Assembly: GCA_963663035.1 (NCBI GenBank)
Contig: OY760074.1
Location: forward strand, 96,001-160,000
Length of the DNA stretch: 64,000 nucleotides
Reading direction: 5' to 3'
DNA from: Acidobacteriota bacterium
GTDB lineage: Bacteria > Acidobacteriota > UBA6911 > RPQK01 > JADFOI01
A program made the translations under genes and the position numbers. Positions 12,127 to 54,893 of this stretch are shown here, one piece after another (within the stretch, counting starts at the first letter, position 1; the number at the start of each line of letters is the position of its first letter). The notes beneath the pieces were generated by a model that saw only the letters and a program-made list of their open reading frames with translations, searched no databases and was not told the DNA's origin.

Positions 12127-12186
12127 GAGGGTGATTTTCATTGCTTTCAGGACACCTCAAGACCTAGCATTGGAGGTAACTGCATT
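12127..12186 (+). promoter_or_regulatory. Repeated promoter/leader module A (TTGCTT-N18-TAGCAT)
   Basis: GAGGGTGATTTT..TTGCTTTCAGGACACCTCAAGACCTAGCATTGG..AACTGCAT. The core is nearly identical to 14728 and related to 17769, 27392 and 31657. Confidence 0.7.
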
Positions 12187-12195
12187 GAGGTGTGC

Positions 12196-12765
12196 ATGAT
12201 GATTGGTAGTGCCAGATTTTGGATCATGATGGCGGTGTTCCAAGTCGTCTTCGGATTGGCGATCTTTACCATCACGCGTCAATACTACATTCAGAACTCC
12301 GATAACGTCAGCGCCGAGCCAACTATCCTAGGAGATCCCTCGATCGCAGGGCCGGACCGCATCACGGACACCAATCTAGAAGGCGCAGCTCTGATATCAC
12401 GTCAGGCTGATGAGGCGTTCACCAACGAGCAATTCGACCGGGCGGCGGAGTTGTATGAGCAGCTCCTGGCACTCAGCCCGAACAACGTGACTGCCTATAA
12501 CAATTTGGGCATAACGCTGCACAATCTCGGCAGATCAGATGAAGCGCTTGGCAAGCTCAATGAAGGTGTGGCCGTGGATCCGACGTATCAAAGAATTTGG
12601 CTAACCTTGGGGTTCGTGAGTATTCAACTCGGTGACACCGAGCAAGCACGTACTGCCCTGACATCCGCTGTCCAGATGGGCGCTGACAACGAGGTCGGAC
12701 AAGCCGCATCAGAAATGCTCGAAAACCTGACGGTGAACCCGCTCCCACTGGTCAATTCGCATTAA
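12196..12765 (+). CDS. Membrane-anchored TPR protein
   Basis: N-terminal TM and AYNNLGITLHNLG TPR repeats. Confidence 0.8.
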   Translation: MMIGSARFWIMMAVFQVVFGLAIFTITRQYYIQNSDNVSAEPTILGDPSIAGPDRITDTNLEGAALISRQADEAFTNEQFDRAAELYEQLLALSPNNVTAYNNLGITLHNLGRSDEALGKLNEGVAVDPTYQRIWLTLGFVSIQLGDTEQARTALTSAVQMGADNEVGQAASEMLENLTVNPLPLVNSH

Positions 12766-12790
12766 CGACTTCTGCCACGGGCTGATACGG

Positions 12791-14470
12791 TCACCGTCCC
12801 ATAGCTCTACAGGTAAAGTTACTCTCCACCCAGTTGGCCGGGTCGTTTTGGCCTCCCTCCGGGCCCGTGTATACAGCCTTTAGGGGATAGGCGCAGACCT
12901 TCCGCTCGTTGTCCACCCGATCGTCCTCCGCCCTGTGGACCGCGACGACGTGATTGGGAGCCTTCCCCTGCTCGACCCACTCGACGAGCGGCGGGAGCTT
13001 GTCCCATTCATTCGGACCGGGGCCCCCTCCGCAGTGCCCCATGCCGGGCATCATGAAGAGCTGGAAGCTCTCCCGGGCCTTTTCGACGTCCCCGTCAAAG
13101 GTGGTCTGGACCACTTCCTTGTAGTAATCGACGGTCGGCTCCGGATGAGGCCCCGTGTCGTTCCAGCCGTGATAGAGAATCAGCTTTCCCTGGTTGGTCT
13201 TCAGAAACCGCTCCAGATCAGGATCCGTGGCGTCCAGGATGGACATCATGGTCTCTCCGCGTCCTGCCGTGACGTCGTCCATGCTGAACTCCCACCATCC
13301 GTACTCCGGCTGCCCCCCGCTCTTGTCGAGCGAGTACGAGACATCCCCAGCGTCCGGTGGGATAATCCCGGGATCCTCATCGTAGAAGATGTAATTGAAC
13401 TGGTCGCTCGACATGCTAAGCCGCGAAGGATGCATGTCGTTCCCGGCCCATGGGAGCACGGCGGTAGCCCAGCCGTACTCCGAGCCCTTGGAATATCCCT
13501 TGTAGATGGTCCTCCCGCTGCTGTCATAGGGCCCCCGGTAGATGTCGCTGATCACCTTCATCTGGAGCTCGGTAAAGCAGGCGTCCCCGTTCTGATCGCC
13601 TCGGCAGTGCATCCCCGGAAGATCCCGCTGCGGCACGAAATCGCAGGCTGTGGGGTCGTCAATGACCCCGTCCTGGATTCCGTCGGCGGCATCACACTTG
13701 TTGATAACGGCCTGGTGCAGCATGTTCATCTTGGTGAGGCTCTCGGGCACCCCGTCCCCGTCGGCATCGAAGGCAAGGTTCCCGGCGAAGTTGTTCTCAA
13801 AGGTCTTTTGCAACATCCAGATATGCGCGACGTTGACCAGGGTGTAGTAGTTGACCGGAGCTCCTCCAACGATGCCGTCGTAATCGTAGGGAAAACGCTG
13901 AGCCTCCATCAGGGCCTGCTTACCGCCGGTCGAGCATCCTTCGAAGTAGGAGTACTCCGCATCCTTTCCGTAGTAAGCCCGGACCACCGACTTGCCGGCG
14001 TTGGTCATCACGTGGACGGCACGGTAGCCGAAGTCGATCTCAGCCTGCCGGTTGTTGAACCCGAAGGAAGCTGCGGGCTCCGAACCGTTGTCGTGTCCCG
14101 TATTGCTGTTGGCCACCGCATACCCTTCCGCTACACGGTGGTCGGCGAAGTCGAGGTCGCCGTCCTTGCCACCGTCGCCCCATCCGAGAAACCGGCCGTT
14201 CCAATCCGATGGCAGCGGGAGCTGGACGTGGTAGTGGATAGCGGGGTTGATGAGCCCGCGGACGTAGCATTGGCGGGGGGCGGTCTCCGTCGCTGAGCGG
14301 AGCTCAGCCGAGAGCAGGGTCAGATTCCGAGTATTCAAAAGCGCCTGACAAGCGGCCTCCTCGGACGAGCCTGCGATCTGTGCGGCCACTGTGGTGCCCC
14401 CCGCCAGAAAGGAAACGACCAAGCTGGACAAGACCAGCCAATTAGTAAGGGGAGAGAGTAGAGACTTCAT
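12791..14470 (-). CDS. Tannase/feruloyl esterase family hydrolase
   Basis: GCSTGG, YHGWND and PGMGHCGGG motifs plus a signal peptide. Paralog of 17871-19511. Confidence 0.9.
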   Translation of the reverse strand: MKSLLSPLTNWLVLSSLVVSFLAGGTTVAAQIAGSSEEAACQALLNTRNLTLLSAELRSATETAPRQCYVRGLINPAIHYHVQLPLPSDWNGRFLGWGDGGKDGDLDFADHRVAEGYAVANSNTGHDNGSEPAASFGFNNRQAEIDFGYRAVHVMTNAGKSVVRAYYGKDAEYSYFEGCSTGGKQALMEAQRFPYDYDGIVGGAPVNYYTLVNVAHIWMLQKTFENNFAGNLAFDADGDGVPESLTKMNMLHQAVINKCDAADGIQDGVIDDPTACDFVPQRDLPGMHCRGDQNGDACFTELQMKVISDIYRGPYDSSGRTIYKGYSKGSEYGWATAVLPWAGNDMHPSRLSMSSDQFNYIFYDEDPGIIPPDAGDVSYSLDKSGGQPEYGWWEFSMDDVTAGRGETMMSILDATDPDLERFLKTNQGKLILYHGWNDTGPHPEPTVDYYKEVVQTTFDGDVEKARESFQLFMMPGMGHCGGGPGPNEWDKLPPLVEWVEQGKAPNHVVAVHRAEDDRVDNERKVCAYPLKAVYTGPEGGQNDPANWVESNFTCRAMGR

Positions 14471-14629
14471 GTCGACCTCCTTAGTCATGAACAGTTCCTT
14501 GGCCAATGGTCAGGACCTTATTGAATCGGGCCAGAGGGGTATTACATCGTTGTTCAATTCTTAGCAGTGATCGGACCCTATGTCAATACCCCCACCCCGG
14601 CCGTGCCCCTCCGTGACGACCCTCGCTCC

Positions 14630-14674
14630 CAGGACTTAAAATCCTGTGAAGGTTCGAGTCCCTCCCCGGGCACA
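14630..14674 (+). pseudogene. tRNA-Leu(UAA) 3' remnant lacking the 5' half and variable arm
   Basis: CAGGA-CTTAAAA-TCCTG anticodon arm joined directly to GAAGG-TTCGAGT-CCCTC T-arm and CCCGGGC-A acceptor strand. Confidence 0.75.
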
Positions 14675-14727
14675 CTTACTCCAGCTCACTCCAGCCAGCT
14701 CGAAGCAATTTAGACGGCCAAGTTTGC

Positions 14728-14772
14728 TTGCTTTCAGGACACCTCAAGACTTAGCATTGGATGCAACTGCAT
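14728..14772 (+). promoter_or_regulatory. Repeated promoter/leader module B
   Basis: TTGCTTTCAGGACACCTCAAGACTTAGCATTGGA differs from module A by one base. Confidence 0.7.
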
Positions 14773-14880
14773 CACGAAAGAGGGAGCATTTGGGAAAATC
14801 CATGGGCGGGACAACTATCAGCCACCACAACTCCCTGGAAGGAGTATTGGCCAGGGGTGAATAAAGAGATCTGCAGAGCC

Positions 14881-15756
14881 ATGTCACGGCGGAGAAAACA
14901 TACGAGAATACTTTTCTCGGAGGCACTGTTGATACTCTTGTTGGGTGCCGTGGCATCATATGGGGCCACAGTAGCGTACTCACTCCAGTTGCCACCTGAC
15001 ATTCCAGTGCCGGACAGGCCGAGCCGGCTCTTAACGGATATAGAGGGGCGTCCACTCCCCCTAGAGAGCGATGAGGAGATCGTACGTTTCCTGCACACAG
15101 CTCGGGTTGTCTCTTCCGAAGAGATCGGAGAGGGTGTGAGCGGGGCGCGTAAGGTTTTGTTGGAGAAGGACGGTCTTCGTGTTCATTCCATCTTTCGGGA
15201 TGTGCGCGTCAACGAGTCCAGGAGATTGCCCTCGGGGACGTGTGCAGCCTATGAGTTGAGCCGATTGCTGGGACTCGACAATGTTCCTCCAGCCGTGGAA
15301 CGGGAGATCGAGGGTAAGAAAGGATCGTTGCAGCTGTGGATCGAGGGGGCAGTAACCGAGAAGGTCCGAAGAGATCAGGGCCTCTCCCTTTTGGATGAAG
15401 AACGCTTGAGTCAGCACTGGCAAGTGATGTTGGTCTTCGATAACTTGATCTTCAACGATGATCGCAATCGAGGGAATTATCTCTATGACCGCAACGGCAA
15501 ACTTTGGATGATCGATCATACGCGATCCTTTCGAACAGATGATGAGTTACCCTACCCAACAGGTATCCTTCACTCTGAACGCCAGTTGTGGGAGGGATTG
15601 CAAAAGCTTGAGTCGGCTGTCGTGAAAACACATCTCCAGCAATACTTGGATCCTGCCGCACTGGAATCACTGATCAGACGCAAGGAAAAACTGGTGGAAC
15701 ACATCCAGGAAATGATTGCTGAGCGCGGCGAGCAGGATGTGCTTTTTAGCTTCTGA
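14881..15756 (+). CDS. Membrane/secreted atypical kinase (PI3/4-kinase-like fold)
   Basis: AAYELSRLLGLDNVPP, GSLQLW, FDNLIFNDDRNRGN and IDHTRSF. Confidence 0.7.
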   Translation: MSRRRKHTRILFSEALLILLLGAVASYGATVAYSLQLPPDIPVPDRPSRLLTDIEGRPLPLESDEEIVRFLHTARVVSSEEIGEGVSGARKVLLEKDGLRVHSIFRDVRVNESRRLPSGTCAAYELSRLLGLDNVPPAVEREIEGKKGSLQLWIEGAVTEKVRRDQGLSLLDEERLSQHWQVMLVFDNLIFNDDRNRGNYLYDRNGKLWMIDHTRSFRTDDELPYPTGILHSERQLWEGLQKLESAVVKTHLQQYLDPAALESLIRRKEKLVEHIQEMIAERGEQDVLFSF

Positions 15757-15827
15757 CGTCCCCGCACGTGGGACGGCCAGCCTTCAGTATGTGGCGACCA
15801 CTTTTGTCACAAGCTCGTCGAGCGGCT

Positions 15828-16199
15828 GGAGAAGTGTACGTGAGGCCGTTTCCCGATGTGAACGCCGGCCGCTGGCAGGTATCGAGCGGCGGCGGGGGAT
15901 GGCCGCTCTGGAGTCCGGACGGCCGGGAGCTCTTCTATGCGGGCCCAGAAGGCATGATGGTAGTACCTATTGAGACTGAGCCGACCTTCACCCAGGGTAC
16001 GGTGGATCTATTGTTTGACTTGGGCTCATACTTGAAGCCACCCGACCTGCCGTACCGAAGGGTCGCTATTTCCCCGGAGGGAGACCGCTTCCTGCTGCTC
16101 AACGCAGGCGGCGGATCGGATGAGACTGCCCAGACGACCAGCATCCACGTCGTCCTCAACTGGTTTGAAGAACTGAAGGAACGGGTCCCCCTGCCCTGA
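15828..16199 (+). pseudogene. Orphan C-terminal fragment of a kinase-TolB gene
   Basis: EVYVRPFP..GRWQVS..GG..PLWSPDGRELFY...NWFEELKERVPLP with no 5' part. Followed by a degenerate IGKPLSH stub. Confidence 0.85.
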
Positions 16200-16285
16200 T
16201 TGGCAAGCCACTTTCCCACTGCTAAGTCCTCCTTGAACTAAGGTCTCTGGGTCCGGACAACTTACCGCTCTCCTCGGGCCCCGAA

Positions 16286-17647
16286 CTACTGGAGATTCTT
16301 CTCCAGTAAGTCCTGAGGATCCAAGACGATGCCGTCCTTGATGACCCTGTAGATCTTCTGGGTGTTACGGATGTCCTCCAGCGGGTCGTCGTCCAGGATG
16401 ACCAGATCGGCATACTTCTCGGCCTGGACGGTGCCCAGCTCCTGATCCATGTGCAAGACCTTGGCGTTGTTCAAGGTCGCGGCCTGCAGGGCCTCCATCG
16501 GAGAAATTCCGGCTTCCACGAACAGCTCCATTTCCCAGTGCAGGCTCCACCCCGGCAGGATGGCAGCAGTGGCCGAATCGGTGCCGGCAATGAGAAGACC
16601 TCCTGCCTGTTGAAAGCGGCGCGTGACCTCCTTCATGCGGACCATGGTACTACTCCATTCGCGGCGCTCTTCTTCTCCATAGCTGGCCAGTGTATCGGGT
16701 TCACCTTCAGGAATGTATCGCAGCAACGGATTGGCCTCCAGGTCTGCAAGGGTACGCGCGTTTCGATTGAAGTTCACCAGAGTGGGAGCAAAATAAACAT
16801 TGCTTTGAACCATCAACTGAATCAAAGTCTCCGCTTTGTCGATGTCAAAGTTTCTATGCATGCGGCCGTACCAGAAACGAAACAAGTGGTCCCGAATGGA
16901 GGGGTCAAAATCAGAGGGCACATCCACTGCTTGCCCCATGGAATCTTCCAGAATCGAATAGGCGTGTTCGACACCATCCAGCCCAGCCTCAATGGCCAAA
17001 AATGCGCCGGGACCACGGCCGTCGACCATGGGCCCGGTGTGTCCGTAGACAAGCAATCCGTTAGCATGGGCGACTTCTACAATCTCCTCGAGGTCACGGA
17101 TCGTGTAGCCCTTGATCTTAATTCCATCGACTCCCGCCTCGACCAGCTTCCGGGCCATTTCCTGAGCACTACCCACCCCCATGGCTTTCACCGATCTGGG
17201 ATTGATGTCCACCCCTGAGACGACCATCCGAGGTCCCAAAATATTGCCGACCGTCAGTTCCTCTCTCAGCGTGAGGACTCTTTCAACCTGTCCTCCCATG
17301 TCTCGGACCGTGGTCACCCCATTTGCCAAATAAAGCCGATGCAGCCAGGGATAACGGTAGTGCACGTGAGAATCGATGAGGCCGGGAATAATGTACTTCC
17401 CGCTCGCCGAGATGACACGGGCCCCCGTGGGTGGACTGAGTTCCCCCTGCCGGTCGATCTCTCGAATGCGATTGCCCTCAATGAGAATCGTCGCACCGGA
17501 GAAGGGAGAACTCCCGGTTCCGTCAATAAGGGTTCCCCCTTCAATGACGATCACGGAACTCTCCGTGGACTGTCCCCAAGCGGGGGAGACCAACAACAGT
17601 GCCAACCAGAGGCAGACAGACTTTGTGTGTTTTATTGCGAGCGGCAT
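16286..17647 (-). CDS. Secreted amidohydrolase (Amidohydro_1)
   Basis: PGLIDSHVH, GVTTVRDMG, AGTDS and KYADLVILD. Confidence 0.9.
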   Translation of the reverse strand: MPLAIKHTKSVCLWLALLLVSPAWGQSTESSVIVIEGGTLIDGTGSSPFSGATILIEGNRIREIDRQGELSPPTGARVISASGKYIIPGLIDSHVHYRYPWLHRLYLANGVTTVRDMGGQVERVLTLREELTVGNILGPRMVVSGVDINPRSVKAMGVGSAQEMARKLVEAGVDGIKIKGYTIRDLEEIVEVAHANGLLVYGHTGPMVDGRGPGAFLAIEAGLDGVEHAYSILEDSMGQAVDVPSDFDPSIRDHLFRFWYGRMHRNFDIDKAETLIQLMVQSNVYFAPTLVNFNRNARTLADLEANPLLRYIPEGEPDTLASYGEEERREWSSTMVRMKEVTRRFQQAGGLLIAGTDSATAAILPGWSLHWEMELFVEAGISPMEALQAATLNNAKVLHMDQELGTVQAEKYADLVILDDDPLEDIRNTQKIYRVIKDGIVLDPQDLLEKNLQ

Positions 17648-17691
17648 TTTGGATCTACTCCTTTAAAATTGTGGGTCCGGCTTTTTCTCAA

Positions 17692-17828
17692 ATATTAGGG
17701 CGTCAAGAGAGGAATGGCAATGGGAAACGTCAAGCTAAAGCCAACTCCACGCCACTCCACCCAAGATAGAGGGTGATTTTGATTGCCTTTTCACCCCCTG
17801 GAGATTTAGCATTGACCACAACTGCATT
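17692..17828. promoter_or_regulatory. Divergent pair of related promoter modules
   Basis: Minus strand CCCATTGCCA-N17-TAATAT (17692-17720). Plus strand GAGGGTGATTTT..TTGCCT-N18-TAGCAT..AACTGCAT (17769-17828). Confidence 0.65.
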
Positions 17829-17870
17829 ATCACTTTTACAACCCTATTACTAAGGGGGGGAGGATCCATC

Positions 17871-19511
17871 ATGAACCGAATAGTCTACTCAGCATCGCTG
17901 TTGTGTGCGATTTCTGTATTGGTTACGTTCGGCTGCAGCGGATTGGGAGGAGATGAAGTCCTGTCGGAAGCGCAAGCCGCTTGTCAGGCCTTGACGGGGA
18001 CACGGAACTTAACCATTACCTCGGCCCGCTTGGTGGAGGCCACGGATTCGACTCCCCAGTATTGCTACGTCAAAGGAGTCATCTCACCTGCCATCGTCTA
18101 TCATGTGCAACTGCCCTTGCCTGAGAACTGGAATGGGCGATTTCTGAAGTGGGGAGATGGCGGCAAGGACGGGGACCTGGATTTTGCCGATCACCGGCTG
18201 GCCGAAGGTTACGCGGTGGCCAACAGCAATACCGGTCATGACAATGGAGCGGAACCGGGATCTACCTTCGGTTTCAACAACCGCCAGGCGGAAATTGATT
18301 TTGGCTACCGGGCGGTGCATCTCACCAGCAACGCAGCCAAGACTGTCATTGACGCCTATTACGATCAGGCTCCTGAATACTCCTACTTCGAGGGTTGCTC
18401 AACGGGTGGAATGCAGGGCCTGACAGAAGCGCAACGATTCCCCTATGACTTTGACGGGATCGTAGCGGGCGCACCGGTGCATAACTACCAGGCCTTGAAT
18501 ATCAGCCATGTCTGGAAGTACCAAAGGCTGTATCAGAATGACTTCGCGGGCAACTTGGCTTTCGACAGCAACGGTGATGGTTCCCTGGACAGCCTCACCA
18601 AGCATGAGATCCTGACGGAAGCGGTTATGGCCAAATGCGATGCCAATGACGGGATCACCGACGGCGTCATTGATAATCCACTCAGCTGCGATTTTAAGCC
18701 CGAGGTGGATCTGGCTGAGATGATGTGCGCCGGGAATGTGAACGCCGACGACTGCTTTACCACTGCGCAGGTACAGACCATTCAGGATATCTATTCCGGT
18801 GCCTACGACTCCAAGGGGGTTTCTGTTTTAAAGGGATTAGCTCTGGGTTCGGAAGCCGGGTGGTCAGGTTCCCTCATTCCCCATGCGGGTAATGGCATGA
18901 GATCTCCCAGTGATCACATCAACTTTCTCTTCTATGAAAACGACCCCGGTGTCCGAACGCCCAAGCCCAATGATCTCTCCCTCATCCCCGATCGAACAAG
19001 CGTGCCGCCCGAGTGGTCCTGGTTTCAGTTCGATATTGACCAGTACACGGCAGGTCAGGGCGATTTGATGAAAGCGATCACCGACGCCACCGACCCGGAT
19101 CTAGAGCGATTTCTCGTCAAGAACAACGGCAAGCTCATCCTGTACCACGGCTGGAGTGATCCGGCCAGTCACTCCGAGCCTACGGTTGATTACTACAAGG
19201 ATGTTGTGAGCACCACCTTCGGGGGAGAAATCGAGACCGCCAGGGATCACTCCAGGCTGTTCATGGCGCCAGGGATGACCCACTGCGGGGGTGGGACTGG
19301 TCCCAACAACTGGGATAAGTTAGCCTCGCTGGTGGATTGGGTGGAAAATGGCAATGCCCCCGACTTTGTCATCGCCACCCACAGCACCGATGGGGTGGTC
19401 GATAACGAGCGGAGAATCTGCGCCTATCCGGAGTTGGCCGTTTACAGCGGTCCTGCCGGTGGGGCAAACGATTCCGCCAACTGGGTGGAGAGCAACTTTA
19501 CCTGTCAGTGA
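17871..19511 (+). CDS. Tannase/feruloyl esterase family lipoprotein
   Basis: Lipobox-like TFGC, GCSTGG, YHGWSD and PGMTHCGGG. Confidence 0.9.
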   Translation: MNRIVYSASLLCAISVLVTFGCSGLGGDEVLSEAQAACQALTGTRNLTITSARLVEATDSTPQYCYVKGVISPAIVYHVQLPLPENWNGRFLKWGDGGKDGDLDFADHRLAEGYAVANSNTGHDNGAEPGSTFGFNNRQAEIDFGYRAVHLTSNAAKTVIDAYYDQAPEYSYFEGCSTGGMQGLTEAQRFPYDFDGIVAGAPVHNYQALNISHVWKYQRLYQNDFAGNLAFDSNGDGSLDSLTKHEILTEAVMAKCDANDGITDGVIDNPLSCDFKPEVDLAEMMCAGNVNADDCFTTAQVQTIQDIYSGAYDSKGVSVLKGLALGSEAGWSGSLIPHAGNGMRSPSDHINFLFYENDPGVRTPKPNDLSLIPDRTSVPPEWSWFQFDIDQYTAGQGDLMKAITDATDPDLERFLVKNNGKLILYHGWSDPASHSEPTVDYYKDVVSTTFGGEIETARDHSRLFMAPGMTHCGGGTGPNNWDKLASLVDWVENGNAPDFVIATHSTDGVVDNERRICAYPELAVYSGPAGGANDSANWVESNFTCQ

Positions 19512-19576
19512 GTGAAAGGCTTGAGATGGTCACCGAACCATCCCAACTTCTGCGTCATTCATAACATAGGCGGACC

Positions 19577-19834
19577 ATGAAAGTTATCATTCCACTAATT
19601 GGAGCTTTACTCATGGTCATCGGTCTCATTCGGGACGGGATGACCCTATTCAATACTCTTGCTGCTGTGGGTCTCCTTCTGTTCTGTTTGGGAGGGGCCA
19701 GTTATTTTCTTGCCTGGCCCCTCTCTCGAAATGAGGAGCAAAAGTGGCGCTTCAACCCGGACTTTGCCTGGTTGTCCATTTATCTAGTGGTTTTGGCCAC
19801 CAGTGCATTCTGGCTCCGGCTCCTGCTTCGATAA
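19577..19834 (+). CDS. Small membrane protein (3 TM)
   Basis: 85-aa hydrophobic ORF. Confidence 0.5.
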   Translation: MKVIIPLIGALLMVIGLIRDGMTLFNTLAAVGLLLFCLGGASYFLAWPLSRNEEQKWRFNPDFAWLSIYLVVLATSAFWLRLLLR

Positions 19835-19860: not shown

Positions 19861-20076
19861 ATGATCAAGAATTTGTTCAAGGGGGCAGCGGTTGTGCTTG
19901 CAGTCTCGGAGATCATCGTGCTCTGGTTCCTCCTCACCTTGTCCGAACCCAATGGTCGTCTTCCTGGCGGGCGCCTCAGCGGGGAAGAAGTCACGGGACG
20001 TGTGACGGACTGGAGCTTCACCCGTGAGAATCGCCCACTGACCCTGGAGGTACGACCCTCCAATCCCTATTCCGTC
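19861..20076 (+). pseudogene. Hypothetical membrane protein truncated by IS3
   Basis: MIKNLF...PGGRLSGE..DWSF...RPSNPYSV runs into the IS3 left end. Confidence 0.65.
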
Positions 20077-20142
20077 TGACCTTGCCCCCTAAAACGAGTC
20101 CAGTTTGAATGTTAGGATTTCCGGTTTAGGAAGGAGGCAAGG

Positions 20143-20421
20143 ATGGCAGGGAAGCGGTTTAGGGCAGAACAGATCATCATGAAGCTGCGTGAGGCAGAGG
20201 TGGGTCTGGCCCAAGGACAGAGGGTGGGACAGGTGTCGAAGCAGATGGGGGTGAGCGAGCAGACCTACTACCGGTGGCGCAAAGAGTACGGAGGGCTCCG
20301 GTTGGACCAGGCCAAGAGGTTGAAGGTGTTGGAGAAGGAGAATACCCGGTTGAAGAAGCTGGTGGCGGATCTGTCTTTGGACAAGCAGATCCTGAAGGAA
20401 GTGTCCTCGGGAAACTTCTAG
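20143..20421 (+). CDS. IS3 OrfA (HTH)
   Basis: [16 protein letters not shown] and [25 protein letters not shown] -1 slippery site near its end. Confidence 0.9.
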
Positions 20422-21314: not shown

Positions 21315-21343
21315 AGGGTGGACTCGTTCGTGGGGGCAGGTCA

Positions 21344-23253: not shown

Positions 23254-23256
23254 CCG

Positions 23257-23396
23257 CGGCTCTGTTTGAGCCTCGTCAGCTCCGTCAGAGCCGCAGGCTT
23301 CAGCCTGCGGGCCGTTCCCACATTTCCATTGCCTTCTAACCTCCTGAAGGTCTACTATCTACAGACAGTCTCGTTATGCAGTCTTGAAGGGGGAGT
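23257..23396 (+). repeat. REP-like hairpin + promoter/leader composite repeat
   Basis: CCGCAGGCT-TC-AGCCTGCGG hairpin followed by TTGCCT-N18-TACTAT. About 100 bp are shared with 43666-43784, and the leader is shared with 54845-54893. Confidence 0.8.
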
Positions 23397-23399
23397 TTC

Positions 23400-23468
23400 G
23401 TGCTCGGCAAGACCATCTCGCATTACAAGGTTCTTGAGAAAATTGGCCAGAAGGGTATCGGGAGGTGA
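23400..23468 (+). pseudogene. Ser/Thr kinase N-terminal stub
   Basis: GTG start encoding (M)[21 protein letters not shown], matching the kinase starts at 31726 and 51696. Confidence 0.8.
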
Positions 23469-23470
23469 AG

Positions 23471-25204: not shown

Positions 25205-27385
25205 ATGAAGCGAAGCCCCAGTGGCGGCGGATGGCCAGCCGTGCGATATGCCTGGCAGAAGAGCCAGCAAGTCGGTGGCCTTTTGCCAATGTGGAAGGCC
25301 TTGCGCACCAAGAATGCCTGCAAGACCTGTGCGCTGGGCATGGGTGGGCAAAAAGGGGGGATGGTCAACGAGATCGGTGGCTTTCCCGAAGTCTGCAAGA
25401 AATCCCTGCAGGCCATGGCCGCAGACATGCAGGGTGCAATCAAACCGGAGTTCTGGAGTACCTACTCCATTGAGGAACTCAGGAATCTCTCACCTCGCCA
25501 ACTCGAGTCGTGTGGTCGGCTGGTTCAGCCGGTGCTCTATAGGCGCGGCCAGAAATATTACCGCCCCATAGAGTGGCCCCAGGCCATGGAACTGATCGTC
25601 GCCAAACTCAAGAGTCTCCCCGCCCGGCAAACCTTTTGGTACTTCAGCGGACGCAGTTCCAATGAGGCGGGGTTTCTGCTGCAGCTCTTCGCCCGACTGT
25701 ATGGGACCAACAATGTGAACAACTGCAGCTACTACTGCCACCAGGCCAGCGGGGTGGGACTGACCCGTTCTTTGGGCAGCGGTACCGCCACCATTTTGTT
25801 GGAGGACCTGGAATGCGCCGATCTGGTTTTTGTCATCGGCGGCAATCCGGCCAGCAACCATCCGCGCCTGATGACCAGCCTGATGCGTGTGCGACGGCGC
25901 GGTGGCGAGGTGATCGTGGTCAACCCGGTGGTGGAAGCCGGGCTGGTGGAGTTTCGGGTACCCAGCAACCTGCGCAGCCTGTTGTTTGGGACCCAGATCG
26001 CCACCCTCTATATTCAACCCCATGTGGGGGGAGACCTGGCGCTGCTCAGCGGGATCGCCAAGCGGATTGATGAGATGGGGGCACAGGACGAAGCGTTTCT
26101 CCGCACCCATTGTGAGAATTATGACGAGTGGATCGGGCACCTGCGGAAAATCCCCTGGAGCGAAATCTGCACCAAGTCGGGCGTACGACAATCCGAGATC
26201 GACCAGATCGCCGAGAAGTACGCAGCGGCCAGGAAGGTTGTTTTCAGTTGGACTATGGGGATTACCCATCATGCCCATGGCGTCCAGAATGTGCAGGCGA
26301 TTGCCAATCTGGCCTTGATGCGAGCCATGGTGGGACGCCCTCACGCCGGTTTGTTGCCTATTCGCGGCCATTCCAATGTACAGGGCATTGGCAGTGTGGG
26401 AGTGACGCCAAAGCTCAAGCGTCAGATCTTTGAACGTTTGCAGAACCACTTTGACGTGGAACTGCCGGTTGATGAGGGTCTGGACACACTGGGATGTATC
26501 GAGGCTTCCTATGCTGGCCGGTTGAAAATGGGATTCTGTCTGGGGGGGAACTTGTACGGCTCCAACCCGGATGCCCGCTATACTGGCGAGGCCCTCTCTC
26601 GGCTCGACATGCAGGTTTACCTGAGCACCACACTTAACACCGGACATGCTCACGGACTGGCTGAAGAGACACTGATTCTTCCCGTACGGGCACGTGACGA
26701 GGAAGCGCAGCCGACAACCCAGGAATCGATGTTTAACTTTGTTCGGCTGAGCGACGGTGGTCCGCCACGCCACCTCGGTCCGCGCGGAGAAGTTGAAATC
26801 ATTGCTGAGATTGCAGAGGGCGTACTGAGCAGCGGCGGACCCATCGACTGGCAGTCCATGGGCAACACCGGCCGTATCCGTGAAGCCATTGCCAAAGTGA
26901 TTCCCGGCTTTGAAAAGATGGGCAGGATCGACAAGACCAAAGAGGAGTTCCAGATCGAGGGCCGCACCTTCCACACCCCTCGCTTTCCCACCGATTCCGG
27001 CCGCGCGGTATTGAGCCCCCATGACCTGCCTGAACTGCAAGGCCGTGCTGGAGAGCTGCGGCTCATGACCGTACGGAGTGAGGGACAGTTCAACACGGTG
27101 GTCTACGAAGAGGAAGACCTGTACCGTGGTCAGGACCGCCGCGATGTCATCCTGGTCAATCCTCAAGACATCAAACGGTTGGGTCTCACCGAGAATGAAC
27201 GCGTGACGGTCCACAGCGAGATCGGATCGATGTCCGGCATTCTGGTGCGGCCCTTTCCTCAGATCAAGGCTGGCAATGCGCTGATGTACTACCCGGAGGC
27301 CAATCAGTTGGTGGCGCGCCACACCGACAAGTTGTCGCGGACGCCCGCCTTCAAGGGTGGTGTGGTCACCCTTGACAGAGATTAG
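25205..27385 (+). CDS. FdhF/YdeP-family molybdopterin oxidoreductase
   Basis: SGGGWPA, YFSGRSSNEAGF, NNCSYYCHQAS, NPASNHPR, RGHSNVQG and TVRSEGQFNT. Confidence 0.9.
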   Translation: MKRSPSGGGWPAVRYAWQKSQQVGGLLPMWKALRTKNACKTCALGMGGQKGGMVNEIGGFPEVCKKSLQAMAADMQGAIKPEFWSTYSIEELRNLSPRQLESCGRLVQPVLYRRGQKYYRPIEWPQAMELIVAKLKSLPARQTFWYFSGRSSNEAGFLLQLFARLYGTNNVNNCSYYCHQASGVGLTRSLGSGTATILLEDLECADLVFVIGGNPASNHPRLMTSLMRVRRRGGEVIVVNPVVEAGLVEFRVPSNLRSLLFGTQIATLYIQPHVGGDLALLSGIAKRIDEMGAQDEAFLRTHCENYDEWIGHLRKIPWSEICTKSGVRQSEIDQIAEKYAAARKVVFSWTMGITHHAHGVQNVQAIANLALMRAMVGRPHAGLLPIRGHSNVQGIGSVGVTPKLKRQIFERLQNHFDVELPVDEGLDTLGCIEASYAGRLKMGFCLGGNLYGSNPDARYTGEALSRLDMQVYLSTTLNTGHAHGLAEETLILPVRARDEEAQPTTQESMFNFVRLSDGGPPRHLGPRGEVEIIAEIAEGVLSSGGPIDWQSMGNTGRIREAIAKVIPGFEKMGRIDKTKEEFQIEGRTFHTPRFPTDSGRAVLSPHDLPELQGRAGELRLMTVRSEGQFNTVVYEEEDLYRGQDRRDVILVNPQDIKRLGLTENERVTVHSEIGSMSGILVRPFPQIKAGNALMYYPEANQLVARHTDKLSRTPAFKGGVVTLDRD

Positions 27386-27391
27386 AGAGCA

Positions 27392-27431
27392 ATTTTGATT
27401 GCTTTTACGCCACCTCAAGATTTAGCATTGG
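27392..27431 (+). promoter_or_regulatory. Repeated promoter module D
   Basis: ATTTTGATTGCTT-N18-TAGCATTGG with the CACCTCAAGA spacer seen in modules A and B. Confidence 0.7.
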
Positions 27432-27462
27432 GACCACTTGGTCAGGAAGTGGACGAGAGAAT

Positions 27463-31619: not shown

Positions 31620-31656
31620 GGTTCGCAGACTCACTCCAGACCAGATAAGCGGCAGA

Positions 31657-31693
31657 ATTGATTGCCTTTTTACCCCCTACAGACTTAGCATTG
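31657..31693 (+). promoter_or_regulatory. Repeated promoter module E
   Basis: TTGATTGCCT-N18-TAGCATTG upstream of a kinase. Confidence 0.7.
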
Positions 31694-31725
31694 AGGAGAA
31701 TGACGCCAGAGATGAGCGGGACTCT

Positions 31726-38992: not shown

Positions 38993-38993
38993 G

Positions 38994-43639: not shown

Positions 43640-43784
43640 CAGACAGGACCGTGGGCTGAAGCCCACGGCTCTGTCTGAGCCTCGTCAGCTCCGTCAGAGC
43701 CGCAGGCTTCGGGCGAGCCCGTTTAGCCTGCGGGCCGTCCCCACATCTCCCATTGCTTTCTCACCTCCTGAGGGTCTACTATCT
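43640..43784 (+). repeat. Paired REP-like hairpins + promoter module (second copy)
   Basis: CCGTGGGC-TGAA-GCCCACGG, then the repeat of 23257-23360 including TTGCTT-N18-TACTAT. Confidence 0.8.
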
Positions 43785-43804
43785 GTGCCAGGAGGGACCT
43801 TACT

Positions 43805-47397: not shown

Positions 47398-47398
47398 A

Positions 47399-47428
47399 AA
47401 AAGGGGACAGTCTAGTCTGTCCCCTTTT
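47399..47428. terminator. Bidirectional terminator / GGGGACAG REP-like hairpin
   Basis: AAAAGGGGACAG-TCTAGT-CTGTCCCCTTTT between convergent genes. Confidence 0.75.
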
Positions 47429-47466
47429 CCTGATAAGCCAACCCAGTGGGTGCGGCCGGCGAGGCG

Positions 47467-48090: not shown

Positions 48091-48145
48091 CACCTGTCAG
48101 GAGCCCTCCAGAAGGCATGCCACTGCCATAACGAAACTCTCTATT

Positions 48146-48158: not shown

Positions 48159-48244
48159 GACGTCAATTGAGGGTGATTTGAAGGAGTTGAGAGGGTCTGA
48201 TTCTGACCAGCCAGCGTAAACAGTGGTTTACAAACCTGCTTTCT

Positions 48245-49150: not shown

Positions 49151-49340
49151 TGTTTTCTCCTCACTATCTGCTAGGAGAAAAATGTACTTCATTTCCGGTG
49201 CCGTTGTCGACTGTCCATAGGGCAGCATTGCGTTCAGTTCTCCTGGGCTTTATCATCTAGGGAAATTACTCAAAGCTTTTTCAGGGAGGGTTCGGTGGAA
49301 CGACCTTCGTCATTCATTACATCAGGAGGCCCTAAGGACA

Positions 49341-51056: not shown

Positions 51057-51148
51057 CTTCTTGGGAAAGAGAGGGACACTTTGTGAGTCCTGATGGCGAC
51101 AGTAAGAGGGCTCGGTTGAGAAATGCTAGAATTTAACAGGAGGCAACC

Positions 51149-51346
51149 TTGAAATATAAGATCGTAATGAAGAAATCGGAGGAAGGCTACAGTGTCTCCT
51201 GTCTTGGTCTGCCCGGATGCTGGTCTCAAGGCGAGACCGAAGAGGAGGCCATCAAGAACATTCAATCTGCCATTCAGGAGTATCTGGCGGCAGTCGATGA
51301 CTCCGTCAAAGGTGCCGACGTCCGGGAAGTGGAAGTTACGACATAG
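51149..51346 (+). CDS. hicB: HicB-like antitoxin (short)
   Basis: LPGCWSQGETEEEAIKNI. Confidence 0.85.
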   Translation: MKYKIVMKKSEEGYSVSCLGLPGCWSQGETEEEAIKNIQSAIQEYLAAVDDSVKGADVREVEVTT

Positions 51347-51348
51347 CC

Positions 51349-51561
51349 GTGCCGAAGATAGCCGGCGTCAACCATCTTCAGGCCGTGAAGGCGTTGGAAA
51401 AGGCTGGGTTCAAGATCGTTCGGCAGGGCAAGCATGTTGTGATGTCAGACGGCACCCGCATCCTCACCATTCCTCGCAACAACCCAGTCAACCCGTATAC
51501 ATTGGGCGGTATTGTGGGTGATGCTGGACTTTCTGTAGAGGAATTCCGCAAGTTACTCTGA
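51349..51561 (+). CDS. hicA: HicA-like mRNA interferase toxin
   Basis: ALEKAGF..RQGKH...TL..I..DAGLSVEEF. Confidence 0.85.
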   Translation: MPKIAGVNHLQAVKALEKAGFKIVRQGKHVVMSDGTRILTIPRNNPVNPYTLGGIVGDAGLSVEEFRKLL

Positions 51562-51572
51562 GGTGGGGATCC

Positions 51573-51600
51573 CTCTAACAAGCCGCTCAAGCTGCCGGTC
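51573..51600 (+). other. Left half of an attC-like site
   Basis: CTCTAAC-AAGCCG-CTCAAGC-TGCC starts just after the hicA stop. No R' GTTRRRY box found. Confidence 0.45.
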
Positions 51601-51619
51601 GGTTTCGCCGCCCACCCCA

Positions 51620-51660
51620 TATTCCCATTGCCTTCATCCCCTTTAAGGCTTAACATCTAG
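51620..51660 (+). promoter_or_regulatory. Repeated promoter module H
   Basis: CCCATTGCCT-N17-TAACATCT, related to the modules at 23329 and 43753. Confidence 0.6.
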
Positions 51661-51695
51661 GACAAGCAAGACCCGCTTGGAGAGGGAGTCAAGAA

Positions 51696-54600
51696 GTGAT
51701 CGGCACCACCATTAGCCACTTCAAAGTCCTGGAAAAGATCGGACAGGGCGGCATGGGCGAGGTTTATCGGGCTGAGGATACCAACCTGAGCCGTGAAGTG
51801 GCCATCAAAGTCCTGCCCGAGCAGTTCACCCAGGACCCTCAACGACTGGCGGGCTTGGTTGAGCAGGTGCAAGCAGACTATGACCGCTTTGGGACCGGGA
51901 GCGGCGCATGGTGGCCAAGGTGGAAGTGAGTGAGCGCGGGTTCAACCGTCGCTTTGTGGTCACCAACCGCCAGGATCTCACGGCCGGGCAGCTGTATGAC
52001 CAACGCGAGGCCAAACTCCCTGCGCCAACACAGATATACAGCCCCCTGCGGGCCGAGCTGTTTCCGGAAGGGGCTCTCGCTTCATCTCTTCAAAGTCCTG
52101 GAAAAGATCGGACAGGGCGGCATGGGCGAGGTTTATCGGGCTGAGGATACCAACCTGAGCCGTGAAGTGGCCATCAAAGTCCTGCCCGAGCAGTTCACCC
52201 AGGACCCTCAACGACTGGCCCGCTTTGAACGCGAGGCCAAACTTCTGGCCTCACTCAATCATCCCAACATTGCCGCCATTCACAGCTTTGAGCACGCAGA
52301 TGACATTCATTTCCTGGTGCTCGAGTTGGTCCCAGGCGACACGCTGGCCGAACGTGTCACCAGAGGCCCACTCCCAGTCGAAGAAGCACTGGAAGTTTGC
52401 CGTCAGATTGCCGAGGGCGTGGAGGCTGCCCATGAGAAAGGCGTCATCCACCGAGATCTGAAGCCCGCCAACGTGAAGATCACCCCTGAGGGCAAGGTCA
52501 AGATTCTGGACTTCGGACTGGCCAAGGCGTTTGAGGCAGAAGCGCCAGTCACAGACATTTCCCAATCGCCCACGCTGACAGAGGAAATGACGAGGGCTGG
52601 TGTCATCCTGGGAACAGCCGCCTACATGAGTCCCGAGCAGGCCAAGGGAAAGCCGGTGGATAAAAGGGCGGATATCTTTGCCTTCGGCGCCGTTTTGTAC
52701 GAGCTGTTGACTGGAAAGAGGGCCTTCGGAGGGGAGACCATTACCGAAACCCTGGGAGCCATCATTCATAAAGAACCCGATTGGAACAGGCTGCCTGAGA
52801 ACACACCTGGGAACATTCGTAACCTGCTTCGCCGATGTCTTCACAAGGATCTCCTAAGGCGTTTTCGCGACGCGGCCGATGTCCGTATCGAGGTCGAGGA
52901 GGCACTCAGTCATCCGCTGCAAGTCGATTTCGGGCGCTCATCTGGAGCCTCACAAACGAGTCGCCAGAATTCCTGGGCTGTGCCTGCGGCAGTAGGCGCA
53001 TTCGCTTTTCTACTGGGAGCTGGGGCCGTCTATTGGTCTTTACAGCGACCGGTCCCAGCCGTAGAGCAGCCGACGGGAAGATTTGTGATCGATCTGGGAC
53101 CTGATCAACAGTTCCCGTATGAGATCACCGGTGTTGCCACCGGAGCCCAGGCCGAGTCTTTTGCTATTTCACCCGACGGTAAACATGTTGTCTACGCGGC
53201 TGCTGGTCTCGATCAAGGGGAAACACAGCTTTACCTGCGCACCTTAGATCGTTATGAGTCCCGTCCGATTCCCGATACGGAAGGCGCCACCGACCCGGTT
53301 TTTTCACCCGACAGCCAGTGGCTCGGCTTTCTTTCAGGAAGCGAACTCAAGAAGGTAGCGCTGGCAGGAGGATCACCTGTGAGCCTCTGCACATTCTCGG
53401 ATGATGATCTACCGATCTTCGGTGGGCTGACTTGGGGAGAAAGCGACCTGATCGTCTTTGGAAGGCTCAACTCGGGACTGTGGCAGGTACCAGGAACGGG
53501 CGGTGAGCCGCAACCCCTGACCACCCTGGACTCAGAGAGTGGCGAGACACGCCACGCGGATCCTCAATTTCTTCCGAGTGGTGAGGCGTTACTCTTTTAT
53601 TTGGTGGCAGGTGAGGGCCCGAAAATCTGGGTTCTTTCTGTGGAGACGGGCGAACGAAACGAAGTGCTGGAGGGTTTGCGCCCTCGCTACGCCTCCTCAG
53701 GCCATATCGTTTTTCAGCGTCGGGATTCCCTTTATGCTGTACCCTTCGATGTCAAGAGCCTCGAGGTCACCGGTTCTCCTGTCCCTCTTCCTCACAGGGT
53801 CAGGACTCAGCCGGTCACAAATCTGGCGGATTTTGCTTTCTCTGAGACTGGAACGCTGGTTTACCGGCTCCCCACTCAGGAGGAGGGTAGCAGAAAACTG
53901 GTGTGGGTGGATCGTCGGGGACAAGTCCAGCCGGTCACGGAGATCCAACGGCGGTTCGAAGAACCGCGCCTCTCCCCCGATGAGAGCCATCTGGCCGTTA
54001 CAATCCTGGGCCTTGGTGGATTTAACGTCTGGATCTACGAATTTGCCCGCGGGATATTGACCCCGCTCACCGTTGAAGGAGGAAACAGAGCCATCTGGAC
54101 ACCAGACGGCCAGAGACTGACCTTCTCTTCTAGCGGTCTGGATGCCCCGATCTTCTGGACGGAGGCGGATGGCAGTGGCGAGGCCGAAGCTCTGGTGACC
54201 AGGACGGGGGCCGCCACTCGGGTCATTGCCACATCCTGGTCGTCAGAAGGGGTCCTGGCTTACACACACGGGATTGTCAACAATCTGGACATCTGGGTGA
54301 TGGCGCTCGAAGGTGACCGGGAGCCACAACCGTTTCTTGCCACAGAGTTCAATGAACGCCACTCCATGTTCTCCCCCGACGGCAGTTGGGTGGCATTGAC
54401 TTCCGATCGCTCCGGCCAGGACGAGATCTATGTTAAACCCTATCCCGCCGAGGGGGGACTTGTGCAGATCTCTACGGATGGCGGAGTTGAGCCGGTCTGG
54501 GCCCGCAGCGGAAGGGACCTGTTCTACCGCAGCCAGGACAAGATGATGGTCGTGTCTATTCAGACGCAGCCGACATTCCAGGCAGAAACGCCCAGGCTTC

Positions 54601-54776
54601 TGTTCGAGGACTCCTACAGCGAAAGCTATCTCTCTTTGACCTCGAATTTCGATGTCACGGCCGACGGCCAGCGCTTCGTGATGGTCCAGCTGAGCCAGGA
54701 CCGTGTGGAGCCTGAAAGCCTGAACATCGTCCTCAACTGGTTTGAAGAACTCAAGCGCCTGGTGCCGATCGAGTAG
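51696..54776 (+). CDS. Ser/Thr kinase-TolB/PD40 fusion; 5' end scrambled with IS1380 pieces (51851-52089)
   Basis: [41 protein letters not shown] repeats and [11 protein letters not shown]. The segment 51719-51850 is duplicated at 52088-52219. Confidence 0.8.
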
Positions 54777-54785
54777 TCGTGCGCT

Positions 54786-54893
54786 GAAATATGGGGACAG
54801 ACTACCCGTTTCCCCATTTCGAAAATGAGGAAACGGGTAGTCAGTCCCCACATTTCATCTACGGACAGTCTCGTTACGCAGCTTGGAGGGGGG
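54786..54893. repeat. Long GGGGACAG REP-like hairpin + promoter-deleted leader
   Basis: GGGGACAGACTACCCGTTTCCCCATTT / AAATGAGGAAACGGGTAGTCAGTCCCC inverted repeat, then CCCACATTTC|ATCTACGGACAGTCTCGTTACGCAG, homologous to 23317-23396 without the -35/-10 core. Confidence 0.75.

Follow-up and report, generated by a model that had tools for sequence, protein, structure and literature searches.

Promoter-like modules ahead of unrelated genes

Across the stretch of DNA analysed here (64,000 nucleotides, hereafter the window), near-identical promoter-like segments stand ahead of unrelated genes, and we asked what these segments are, where they come from and how such different genes came to lie behind them. 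Every module copy listed in the initial annotation was present in the window, including the core-deleted copy at 54845 (module I), and the identity of modules A and B over 33 of 34 nt was confirmed. With exact -35 starts fixed, the A-E group (TTGCYT-N18-TAGCAT) begins at 12141, 14728, 17783, 27399 and 31662; modules F and G (23329 and 43753) read N18-TACTAT and module H (51628) reads N17-TAACAT. The modules and the features related to them are as follows.

3124..3205, + strand: kinase-TolB end overlapping an 8-codon kinase start, the start fused in frame to an unrelated ORF (3180-3743)
12112..12187, + strand: module A; AT-rich block upstream, -35 12141-12146, 18-nt spacer, -10 12165-12170, leader relic downstream; cargo is a TPR gene, 12196-12765 (promoter profile PROMA, 51 bits)
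12112-12123, + strand: kinase-TPR 3'-end relic in module A (12-nt motif only, weak)
14610..14635, + strand: kinase-TPR 3'-end relic (14.4 bits; none in 5x shuffles)
14629..14673, + strand: eroded tRNA-Leu(TAA) 3' fragment, att-site relic (21.1 bits; best shuffle 9.3)
14669..14714, + strand: att-arm relic (30.8 bits, outside the training set; best shuffle 13.9)
14714..14862, + strand: module B; -35 14728-14733, -10 14752-14757, leader; heads ORF 14761-15756
14802-14862, + strand: degenerate kinase 5' stub in module B (weak, 14.5 bits; best shuffle 9.2)
15795..16221, + strand: kinase-TolB C-terminal fragment, then an 8-codon kinase start stub, closing the cargo of module B (family D10)
17692..17720, - strand: sigma-70-like site J, TTGCCA-N17-TAATAT, before an amidohydrolase gene, 16286-17647(-)
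17733..17828, + strand: module C; partial arm repeats, -35 17783-17788, -10 17807-17812; heads a tannase gene, 17871-19511
19531..19584, + strand: isolated internal kinase micro-fragment before a small ORF
23254..23462, + strand: module F; REP-like hairpin, -35 23329-23334, -10 23353-23358, leader; heads an amidohydrolase gene, 23465-25195
23400-23462, + strand: kinase 5' stub of 20 codons in module F (50 bits)
27383..27462, + strand: module D; -35 27399-27404, -10 27423-27428; heads a GSDH gene, 27463-28896
31632..31725, + strand: module E; partial arm repeat, -35 31662-31667, -10 31686-31691
43645..43804, + strand: module G; REP-like hairpins, -35 43753-43758, -10 43777-43782
51620..51695, + strand: module H; -35 51628-51633, 17-nt spacer, -10 51651-51656; heads a kinase-TolB gene, 51696-54776
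54785..54901, + strand: module I; 73-nt palindrome and F-type leader, promoter core deleted

The pattern TTGCYN-N17/18-TANNAT occurs 10 times in the window, compared with a mean of 0.84 and a maximum of 4 in 200 shuffles, and TTGCYT-N18-TAGCAT occurs five times, compared with 0.005. A leave-one-out weight matrix built from the spacer only placed each held-out A-E copy third to ninth among 127,966 positions. We read the module as a putative sigma-70 promoter with the leader of an expanded Ser/Thr kinase family. Scans of the window for generic promoters and terminators stayed at chance level; since the family agrees with the E. coli consensus at fewer than 9 of 12 positions, promoter scans miss it, and a terminator-like stem-loop was not found in every module. 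A sigma-54 reading of TTGCT was rejected by eye, the GG-GC spacing being wrong. Site J, previously counted as a family member at 17720(-), has a best family spacer match of 10/18, equal to that of unrelated sites at 7825(-), 36540(-) and 49228(+), and is probably an ordinary promoter outside the family.

Pfam families of the cargo (TPR, no family, tannase, GSDH, kinase-TPR, amidohydrolase, a weak DUF1554, kinase-TolB and amidohydrolase) bear out that the modules precede unrelated genes. Some labels had to be changed: the supposed atypical kinase had no Pfam match at E 1e-3, the lectin corresponds to the weak DUF1554 match, and the copies standing before a kinase or kinase stub number four (B, weakly, E, F and H) and not three.

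A scan of 185,579 species genomes with the strict pattern yielded a comparison set of eight genomes, one per species, mostly Acidobacteriota and mostly in short contigs, each with 1-4 strict copies. Eleven of the 28 scan loci (L002, L007-L012, L017, L020, L021 and L023, from Bacillota, Bacteroidota and one Thiotrichaceae) were dropped because they lacked similarity to the window, roughly the number expected by chance (estimate about 17). Of 14 matches on short contigs, 12 are no more than 1.25 kb from a contig end; the repeated modules would explain such breaks of short-read genomes in these regions. Twelve further copies lie outside the strict pattern; TTGCYT is kept in all of them, TANNAT in 11, and the spacing is always 17-18 nt. 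No gene stands immediately behind the one copy whose -10 is broken (L001:9344).

These counts bear on the simplest explanation, an ordinary regulon in which a sigma-70 promoter with a transcription factor site in the spacer arose separately at unrelated genes. The spacer does carry a weak dyad (CCT-N2-AGR), and module cores differ at 0-2 of 30 positions across species, which exceeds the conservation of orthologous coding DNA. However, so few strict copies per genome indicate that the module is not a genome-wide sigma or transcription factor motif, a possibility that the initial annotation had raised; the homology continues for 100-200 nt to either side, taking in tRNA and kinase codons, and the core-gene stretches of L015, L016 and L028 hold no score above 10/18. 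As an origin of the family the regulon is largely refuted and we consider it very improbable, although a regulator binding the spacer may explain its conservation, if not its origin.

The putative tRNA-Leu arm and the kinase leader

The module as initially delimited, promoter plus leader, stands, but the A-E unit is longer, and its promoter reads as the tail of an attachment arm of tRNA-Leu(TAA). In relatives the full unit comprises tRNA-Leu(TAA) or its 3' fragment, a hairpin, direct repeats with an 11-nt period, CACTCCA repeats, promoter, leader and kinase. At L015, which lies at a contig end, an intact tRNA-Leu(TAA) is followed by arm, promoter and kinase, the kinase ATG standing 205 nt after the tRNA. 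All four long tRNA-Leu fragments start at base 23, behind three different upstream sequences, and such an exact common start is a signature of site-specific integration. Judged by its sequence, the A-E arm reads as the attL arm of integrative elements targeting tRNA-Leu, with the kinase in the usual slot of the integrase.

Among the 25 A-E-type copies, 12 matched the arm (7 of them in the training set) and six had tRNA-Leu or a relic of it upstream. The direct repeats are seen in 11 of the 12 arms inspected, the remaining arm keeping a single repeat; in the L003 arm both repeats are changed at the same period, and this is also the one arm with an IHF-consensus site. The reading of the repeats as arm sites follows the general architecture of att sites. 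The F/G/H subfamily (10 copies) gave no arm or tRNA match. Hairpins precede F, G and I, and follow the tRNA in full arms. Compared with phages and plasmids, the L001 junction gave tRNA-Leu matches only (20 and 2 records, respectively).

In the window, module B keeps an eroded tRNA copy, and A, C, D and E are without the tRNA core. The relic has retained the anticodon and T arms and carries a 15-nt deletion in the variable arm; ARAGORN and Rfam, which gave no matches over the whole window (and thus no intact tRNA-Leu by ARAGORN), did not detect it. It is joined via microhomology to the kinase-TPR 3'-end relic at 14610..14635, and the arm relic that follows holds CACTCCA repeats, the TGTGCCC repeats of relatives being deleted. 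The module B core is identical at 30/30 positions to that at L004:703, module C is 89% identical to L003 over 80 nt, and the L027 unit orthologous to module D and its GSDH gene still holds tRNA and arm relics. Three tRNA-Leu fragments are co-oriented on the + strand of CBDCMH010000001.1 (L027 twice, L028), and one other tRNA 3' half is inverted (E 0.04). Among the loci examined, no contig showed both an intact tRNA and fragments.

On the downstream side, 18 of the 35 copies are followed by a kinase start, 5' stub or body-deleted kinase (HMM matches plus two short matches read from sequence), and three more keep the kinase RBS block. The same RBS block ends both subfamilies, and at L025:131 the kinase body is deleted, with RBS and last codons kept. 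Module E occupies the native position, ahead of an intact kinase-TPR gene (31726-34011); the 95-aa ORF before it, considered as a possible integrase or excisionase remnant, reached just 0.75 in Atlas. Module H has a close counterpart at L028:18894 that heads a non-kinase gene, module G abuts the RBS of the DUF1554/lectin-like gene (43805-44488) and is missing before its L027 orthologue, and module I is preceded by a kinase-TolB stop and heads an amidohydrolase gene from 54902. By homology, the modules descend from the promoter and 5' leader of the kinase-TolB/kinase-TPR family, a well-supported descent that agrees with the kinase leader proposed in the initial annotation. The family is large: at least 7,479 of the 8,000 candidates scored reached E<=1e-30, and one genome's name appears on 7 of the best 120 candidates.

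Kinase 3' ends, which the initial annotation had missed, are retained alongside the 5' ends, and all 46 kinase-end matches lie on one strand within each locus. By protein tile, isolated stubs number 6-9 for the first tile and 3-4 for the last kinase-TolB tile, and none came from catalytic-core tiles with detection power; loci selected by promoter are biased toward 5' stubs. An end enrichment seen with DNA tiles was set aside after a power control, detection power being higher at the ends. In the last 16 kinase-TolB codons the same codon is used at 108 of 163 identical residues, compared with 69 expected (15 non-independent pairs); the kinase 5' end has no codon excess (41% vs 43%).

Shuffling between relatives and its possible routes

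Seven window genes have orthologues of 79-91% in relatives, where their neighbours differ, and across species nearly the same core is found ahead of unrelated genes, both as the initial annotation had anticipated. Stable synteny, which it had named as contrary evidence, is seen across module E in L019, the closest locus (95%), but not around the modules in general. These comparisons show the shuffling itself; its mechanism we infer. Breakpoints lie near start and stop codons, differ from gene to gene and share no single fixed site. The predicted break just 3' of the module was not borne out: module D travels with GSDH, whose 5' break falls inside the module just 5' of the -35, and kinase 5' stubs vary from 18 to 248 nt. 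The abhydrolase break is at a stub end, and several other breaks have no repeat. The earlier reading of a portable promoter or anchor that gives a cassette-like array keeps its kinase leader and shuffled genes and loses its breakpoint.

We favour, as rather probable, an eroded tandem array of islands and kinases in which promoter and kinase ends act as expression units and as anchors for homologous recombination. Repeated integration at tRNA-Leu, by an integrase not seen here, would have produced a head-to-tail array. Foreign genes would have come behind the promoter through deletion or replacement of kinase bodies, by illegitimate or homology-facilitated recombination, and deletion of the bodies would leave stubs of variable length, such as those found. 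Shared promoter, leader and kinase ends would offer 40-200 nt of homology for exchange, so that ordinary homologous recombination could exchange promoter-plus-gene units, remove them or give them another promoter (compare phage PeSL cassettes), with the promoter presumably retained for cargo expression.

A tyrosine integrase encoded elsewhere might instead insert promoter-bearing units at the tRNA-Leu att site or at a site in the module. Such an active cassette system would fit the near-perfect tRNA fragments with their common start, the intact arms, the three fragments on one contig strand, cargo homology that ends near RBS and stop codons, and the SRAP gene that adjoins two junctions. However, no tyrosine integrase was found in 47 window ORFs (as initially noted), 106/137 locus ORFs or 99 unannotated frames, no integrase or excisionase remnants were found in these frames or in 16 ORFs compared with PHROGs, and our regular expression and fold filter returned no complete attC-like fold in 207 kb. 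A fixed crossover in or after the module is likewise missing, and the tRNA core is gone from most copies, A, C, D and E among them. We consider this system quite improbable, and since no cognate integrase was found, we file the loci as relics of a tandem tRNA island array and not as intact islands.

Under passive decay, random deletions at microhomologies would have worn down tandem islands of kinase plus cargo; the repeats would not be anchors, promoters and adjacent stubs would survive only by expression selection, and gene order would vary through IS elements and independent island gain or loss. A clear deletion series (the variable-arm deletion in the tRNA of B, core-deleted module I, and stub shrinkage from L024:6404 to L018:1099) and the varying stub length agree with it, as do active IS families, IS1380 (3 copies) and IS3 (2 copies), which could move genes too. 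Nor was stub polarity significant, for 5' stubs preceding cargo (12/18 vs 5/16, p=0.08) or 3' stubs following it (9/18 vs 10/16, p=0.51). Decay does not account well for the many 3' stubs that sit after cargo stops with no promoter nearby (none following in 12 of 16), for the codon-level similarity at kinase 3' ends, or for cargo found with different promoter subtypes, as is the B cargo in L005. Upstream block and core also form a four-way mosaic, occurring in all combinations (7, 2, 1 and 3 of 13 classifiable among 23 copies). We regard decay without anchors as rather unlikely.

Beyond the favoured array lies a possible, if doubtful, extension: a chromosomal cassette platform free of integrase, in which the att-derived promoter and the first and last kinase codons would be standard flanks for swapping genes. 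If so, a gene captured in one kinase could be swapped by short-homology recombination into any kinase slot and would arrive expressed. Cells would then have an equivalent of the PeSL shuffling of phages, and part of the kinase expansion would be a side effect of island accretion at tRNA-Leu.

Comparison with known systems

According to the passages on them in PMC2839356, PeSL cassettes of T4-type phages (RB49/phi1) are sigma-70-like promoter modules in hyperplastic regions, proposed as linkers for homologous recombination, and there was then no evidence for such cassettes in cellular organisms. At the level of pattern, the modules resemble them as a repeated sigma-70-like promoter heading unrelated genes in a variable region with no dedicated recombinase. 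Unlike those described there, they are cellular, appear to derive from a tRNA att arm and a kinase leader, carry coding stubs from both kinase ends and, in A-E, have no consistent stem-loop, and their promoter activity is predicted from sequence.

Tandem tDNA-integrated islands and cis-mobilizable elements (PMC3146451; Islander, PMC4383910), of which the ssrA islands of Dehalococcoides are an example, have repeated 3' tDNA fragments that share orientation and start and bound variable cargo. Many members there, as here, are without integration genes, and an expanded family accumulates (rdhA there, kinases here). In contrast, the integration module was not found here at all, at most junctions the promoter remains but the tRNA core is gone, and units are often single, re-headed genes. 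Integrase promoters of the KplE1 intS type overlap attL, with 208-228 nt given for autoregulated pairs in the relevant part of PMC2951348; here the distances from the tRNA are about 140 nt to the promoter, which overlaps putative arm-like repeats, and about 205 nt to the ATG, but the slot gene is a Ser/Thr kinase and not an integrase. As outlined for S. aureus lpl (PMC2568036), a block of 3' end, intergenic region and 5' end is the unit in a tandem paralogue cluster, and in the V. cholerae HFIR effector-immunity arrays, as summarized in PMC5361080, anchor-assisted insertion displaces a resident gene. The parts swapped in both accounts are family members, whereas the genes exchanged here encode unrelated enzymes and bring their own RBS.

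Should the modules indeed act as anchors, the locus would exemplify cellular promoter-cassette shuffling, a question left open in the PeSL account (PMC2839356). It would also show how cassette arrays can arise that escape integron and island finders, since intI, attC and intact att are lacking. The analysis proposes, at the level of sequence, how accessory enzymes are gained and reordered in a little-studied lineage of Acidobacteriota, ties this to kinase expansion and provides marker sequences for delimiting these regions. A literature search for this promoter-cassette system in Acidobacteria returned nothing relevant, with most subscription papers outside its coverage.

An integron consists of intI, attC sites, a single Pc and an array of one-gene units, which are unrelated, vary in order and mostly point the same way. 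The array described here shares this gene arrangement, and promoter copies heading reshuffled unrelated genes suggest cassette-like gene gain and swapping without an integron: intI and complete attC were not found, there is one promoter per unit and not one Pc, breakpoints vary (as the stub lengths do), and many genes lie on the reverse strand. Separately, a half-site-like attC stretch is present at 51574, after hicBA.

Repeated modules and their distribution

The module positions proposed in the initial annotation were confirmed in the window sequence. Copies A-E form one subfamily of the promoter/leader unit and F-H a second, and copy I lacks the core:

Module A, -35 at 12141, TTGCYT-N18-TAGCAT
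Module B, -35 at 14728, TTGCYT-N18-TAGCAT
Module C, -35 at 17783, TTGCYT-N18-TAGCAT
Module D, -35 at 27399, TTGCYT-N18-TAGCAT
Module E, -35 at 31662, TTGCYT-N18-TAGCAT
Module F, 23329, N18-TACTAT, register as in A-E
Module G, 43753, N18-TACTAT, register as in A-E
Module H, 51628, spacer of 17 nt
Module I, 54845, F-type leader without the promoter core

A and B are identical at 33/34 nt, as claimed. The loose promoter pattern occurs 10 times in the window versus 0.84 in shuffles, and held-out copies ranked 3rd to 9th of 127,966 positions in leave-one-out scoring of the spacer only. The site at 17720 (-), also listed as a member, resembled the family no more closely than other, unrelated sites of promoter-like sequence did. 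Besides accessory genes, the window carries three complete or fragmentary kinase-TolB genes and one kinase-TPR gene (two kinds of the lineage's expanded Ser/Thr kinase family), three IS1380 and two IS3 copies; no tRNA or Rfam RNA was detected in it.

A pattern scan of 185,579 species genomes yielded 28 loci (L001-L028), 17 of which fall in eight genomes with 1-4 strict copies apiece; the window by itself holds six. By title, six of these genomes are Acidobacteriota or Acidobacteria, one is Binatia and one an uncultured bacterium. The other 11 loci, from distant taxa and without similarity to the window, were set aside as chance matches. Relaxed scoring gave 35 copies, eight in the window and 27 elsewhere. 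Copies in short-read genomes are probably undercounted, as 12 of the 14 matches on short contigs fall no further than 1.25 kb from a contig end. The core-gene stretches of L015, L016 and L028 contained no copies of the A-G type. Since copies are few per genome and absent from these stretches, the ordinary genome-wide sigma or transcription factor motif named as an alternative at the outset is unlikely, and a plain regulon is the most improbable account that we considered.

Kinase leader, tRNA-Leu and a probable att arm

The proposal that the module is the leader of the expanded kinase family was borne out: in 18 of the 35 copies, what follows is an intact kinase, a 5' stub (a left-over kinase end) or a kinase of which the RBS and last codons are left. 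A further three have the kinase RBS block, and it is this block into which both subfamilies run. The kinase-TolB family is very large, with several copies per genome. We regard descent of the modules from the kinase leader as nearly certain. Twelve copies outside the strict pattern retain hexamers and spacing with a drifting spacer sequence, and the single broken -10 among them has no gene immediately downstream; such retention in a putative promoter would fit selection for promoter function.

L015 carries an intact tRNA-Leu(TAA) and, in order behind it, a hairpin, direct repeats of TGTGCCC with an 11-nt period, CACTCCA repeats, the promoter and a kinase, whose ATG lies 205 nt 3' of the tRNA. 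The same arm of repeats stands in L001, L003, L004 and L028 behind a tRNA-Leu fragment starting at base 23 in all four, preceded by three different upstream sequences. In L003, the two arm repeats have both changed, with an unaltered period, and there is an IHF-consensus site. By analogy with the usual architecture of att arms, these repeats may be integrase arm sites. An arm match was found in 12/25 A-E-type copies (seven of them in the training set) and tRNA-Leu sequence upstream of six. Module B preserves every element in sequence, though eroded (the end of a kinase-TPR gene, a tRNA relic, arm, promoter, a relic of a kinase 5' end, the unrelated cargo gene, a kinase-TolB end and the next kinase start), and the L027 orthologue of D retains tRNA and arm relics. 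The F/G/H-type copies (n=10) showed no arm or tRNA match and often sit behind REP-like hairpins.

According to sections of PMC4383910, island ends are marked by a 3' tDNA fragment and anticodon-centred sites are common; PMC2951348 describes many tRNA-linked elements in which the promoter of the integrase gene and attL overlap, at a distance similar to that of the promoter here. Derivation of A-E from an att site is very probable. No integrase was found in the window, as stated initially, or among the locus ORFs searched, and a live integrase-driven system appears improbable.

Several observations accompany the arm. In L028, 9851-9921 (-), the inverted 3' half of another tRNA (Rfam 20.5 bits, E 0.04) lies directly 5' of a complete arm with its promoter, which suggests that arms can also become attached to a second target. 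Contigs titled Candidatus Binatia (L003 and L006, JAZFYO01) have this tRNA-Leu fragment, arm and promoter too, through either mis-binning or cross-phylum transfer. An SRAP gene ends just 5' of the tRNA fragment in two genomes (L001 8411-9073, L004 1-396) and is a candidate marker for the element's other end. REP-like hairpins (window 23254-23325, 43645-43745, 54785-54857 and 47398-47432; L014 383-622) lie mostly immediately 5' of F-type promoters, and the 73-nt palindrome 5' of module I is near-perfect; no transposase linked to these hairpins was seen.

Gene reordering and kinase stubs

Seven window genes have 79-91% orthologues across four genomes. In the six aligned at both ends, homology gives out close to the RBS at one end and to the stop codon at the other, and the neighbours are not the same. 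Of the pattern proposed initially as a check, differing neighbours were found, but a breakpoint fixed just 3' of the module was not. GSDH moves together with module D, the break lying immediately upstream of the -35 box; in L005 the cargo of B has the identical stub junction, yet a C/E-type promoter; the lectin-like gene in L027 has no module; and the alpha/beta hydrolase is accompanied by a kinase stub in L025 but not in the window. In L001, Mo-oxidoreductase comes immediately before the gly-zipper gene, behind which stand SRAP and a complete att junction; the window has D, GSDH and an aminotransferase between these two genes. Stable synteny, named beforehand as evidence against the proposal, extends across E, which heads an intact kinase-TPR gene, in the closest relative (L019, 95% over 2.7 kb). 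Paralogous cargo recurs in the window and related loci (amidases 5438-7726 and 45049-47397, tannases 12791-14506 and 17871-19511, four Amidohydro_3 genes).

Near-identical cores precede unrelated genes in different species, and all four combinations of upstream block and core are present, which points to probable recombination among modules; recurrent mutation may instead lie behind the combinations.

Isolated stubs numbered 34 (18 from 5' ends, 16 from 3' ends), and kinase-end matches were co-oriented inside each locus (46/46). Clear sandwiches exist, such as that in L028: arm, promoter, 37 kinase codons, asparaginase, last kinase codons, next start. Those protein tiles that have detection power in the catalytic core revealed no stubs there, and one convincing internal fragment was found elsewhere, whereas the first tile had 6-9 and the last kinase-TolB tile 3-4; a DNA version of this enrichment was confounded and discarded. 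Kinase-TolB 3' ends shared codons at 108 of 163 identical residues versus 69 expected (from gene pairs that are non-independent), 5' ends showed no sharing above expectation, and the test of stub polarity fell short of significance (p=0.08 and 0.51). The stubs range over 18-248 nt in length, which speaks against a crossover at one fixed point. In L024 (7670-8342), a 13-codon kinase start has been joined in frame to the TPR portion of a kinase-TPR gene, the kinase domain being deleted.

The loci show that the modules descend in common from a kinase leader and are attached to tRNA-Leu fragments and arms, that deletion has eroded them and that single genes have been reordered. Repeated site-specific integration would have built a head-to-tail array; foreign genes would have entered by anchor-assisted illegitimate recombination or been exposed on deletion of a kinase body; and the repeats may today allow exchange through ordinary homologous recombination. 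We lean towards the repeats serving as recombination anchors; passive decay plus IS movement is a less likely explanation, though one of some weight.

The modules would work like the PeSL cassettes of T4-type phages (PMC2839356), but are cellular and without a consistent stem-loop; a tandem tDNA island array such as that at Dehalococcoides ssrA (PMC3146451) is the probable kind of ancestor, its integration modules missing here; the 3'-intergenic-5' block of S. aureus lpl (PMC2568036) resembles the unit; and V. cholerae effector arrays (PMC5361080) show similar displacement via anchored insertion. Background on sublocation is in part of bioRxiv 10.1101/2020.11.02.365908. Integron identity was rejected, and our literature search found no account of such a system. 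The module family is real, lineage-specific and richer than first described; its parts are already known, and its most interesting step is a proposed one.

Insertion sequences and other window features

Three near-identical IS1380 copies (193-1642, 3783-5427, 57387-59031) and two identical IS3 copies (20076-21348, 60982-62254) indicate recent transposition; one IS1380 cuts short a kinase-TolB gene, and a homocysteine S-methyltransferase gene (57063-59644 (-)) is interrupted by IS1380. Short non-coding MITE-like elements with IS1380-like ends lie at 11170-11197 and 62577-62730, and in L028 at 18667-18849. At 51696-52260, the opening 138 nt of the kinase-TolB gene headed by H occur twice; the copies are separated by three IS1380 pieces (31, 114 and 75 nt), among which sits a kinase piece of 16 nt. 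An artefact of the assembly or consensus, or else template switching, may account for this. At 51149-51600, immediately before module H, a hicB-hicA pair is followed by a stretch similar to the left part of an attC site, and is possibly a captured integron cassette. The amidohydrolase behind module I (54902-56668) is spread over two frames.
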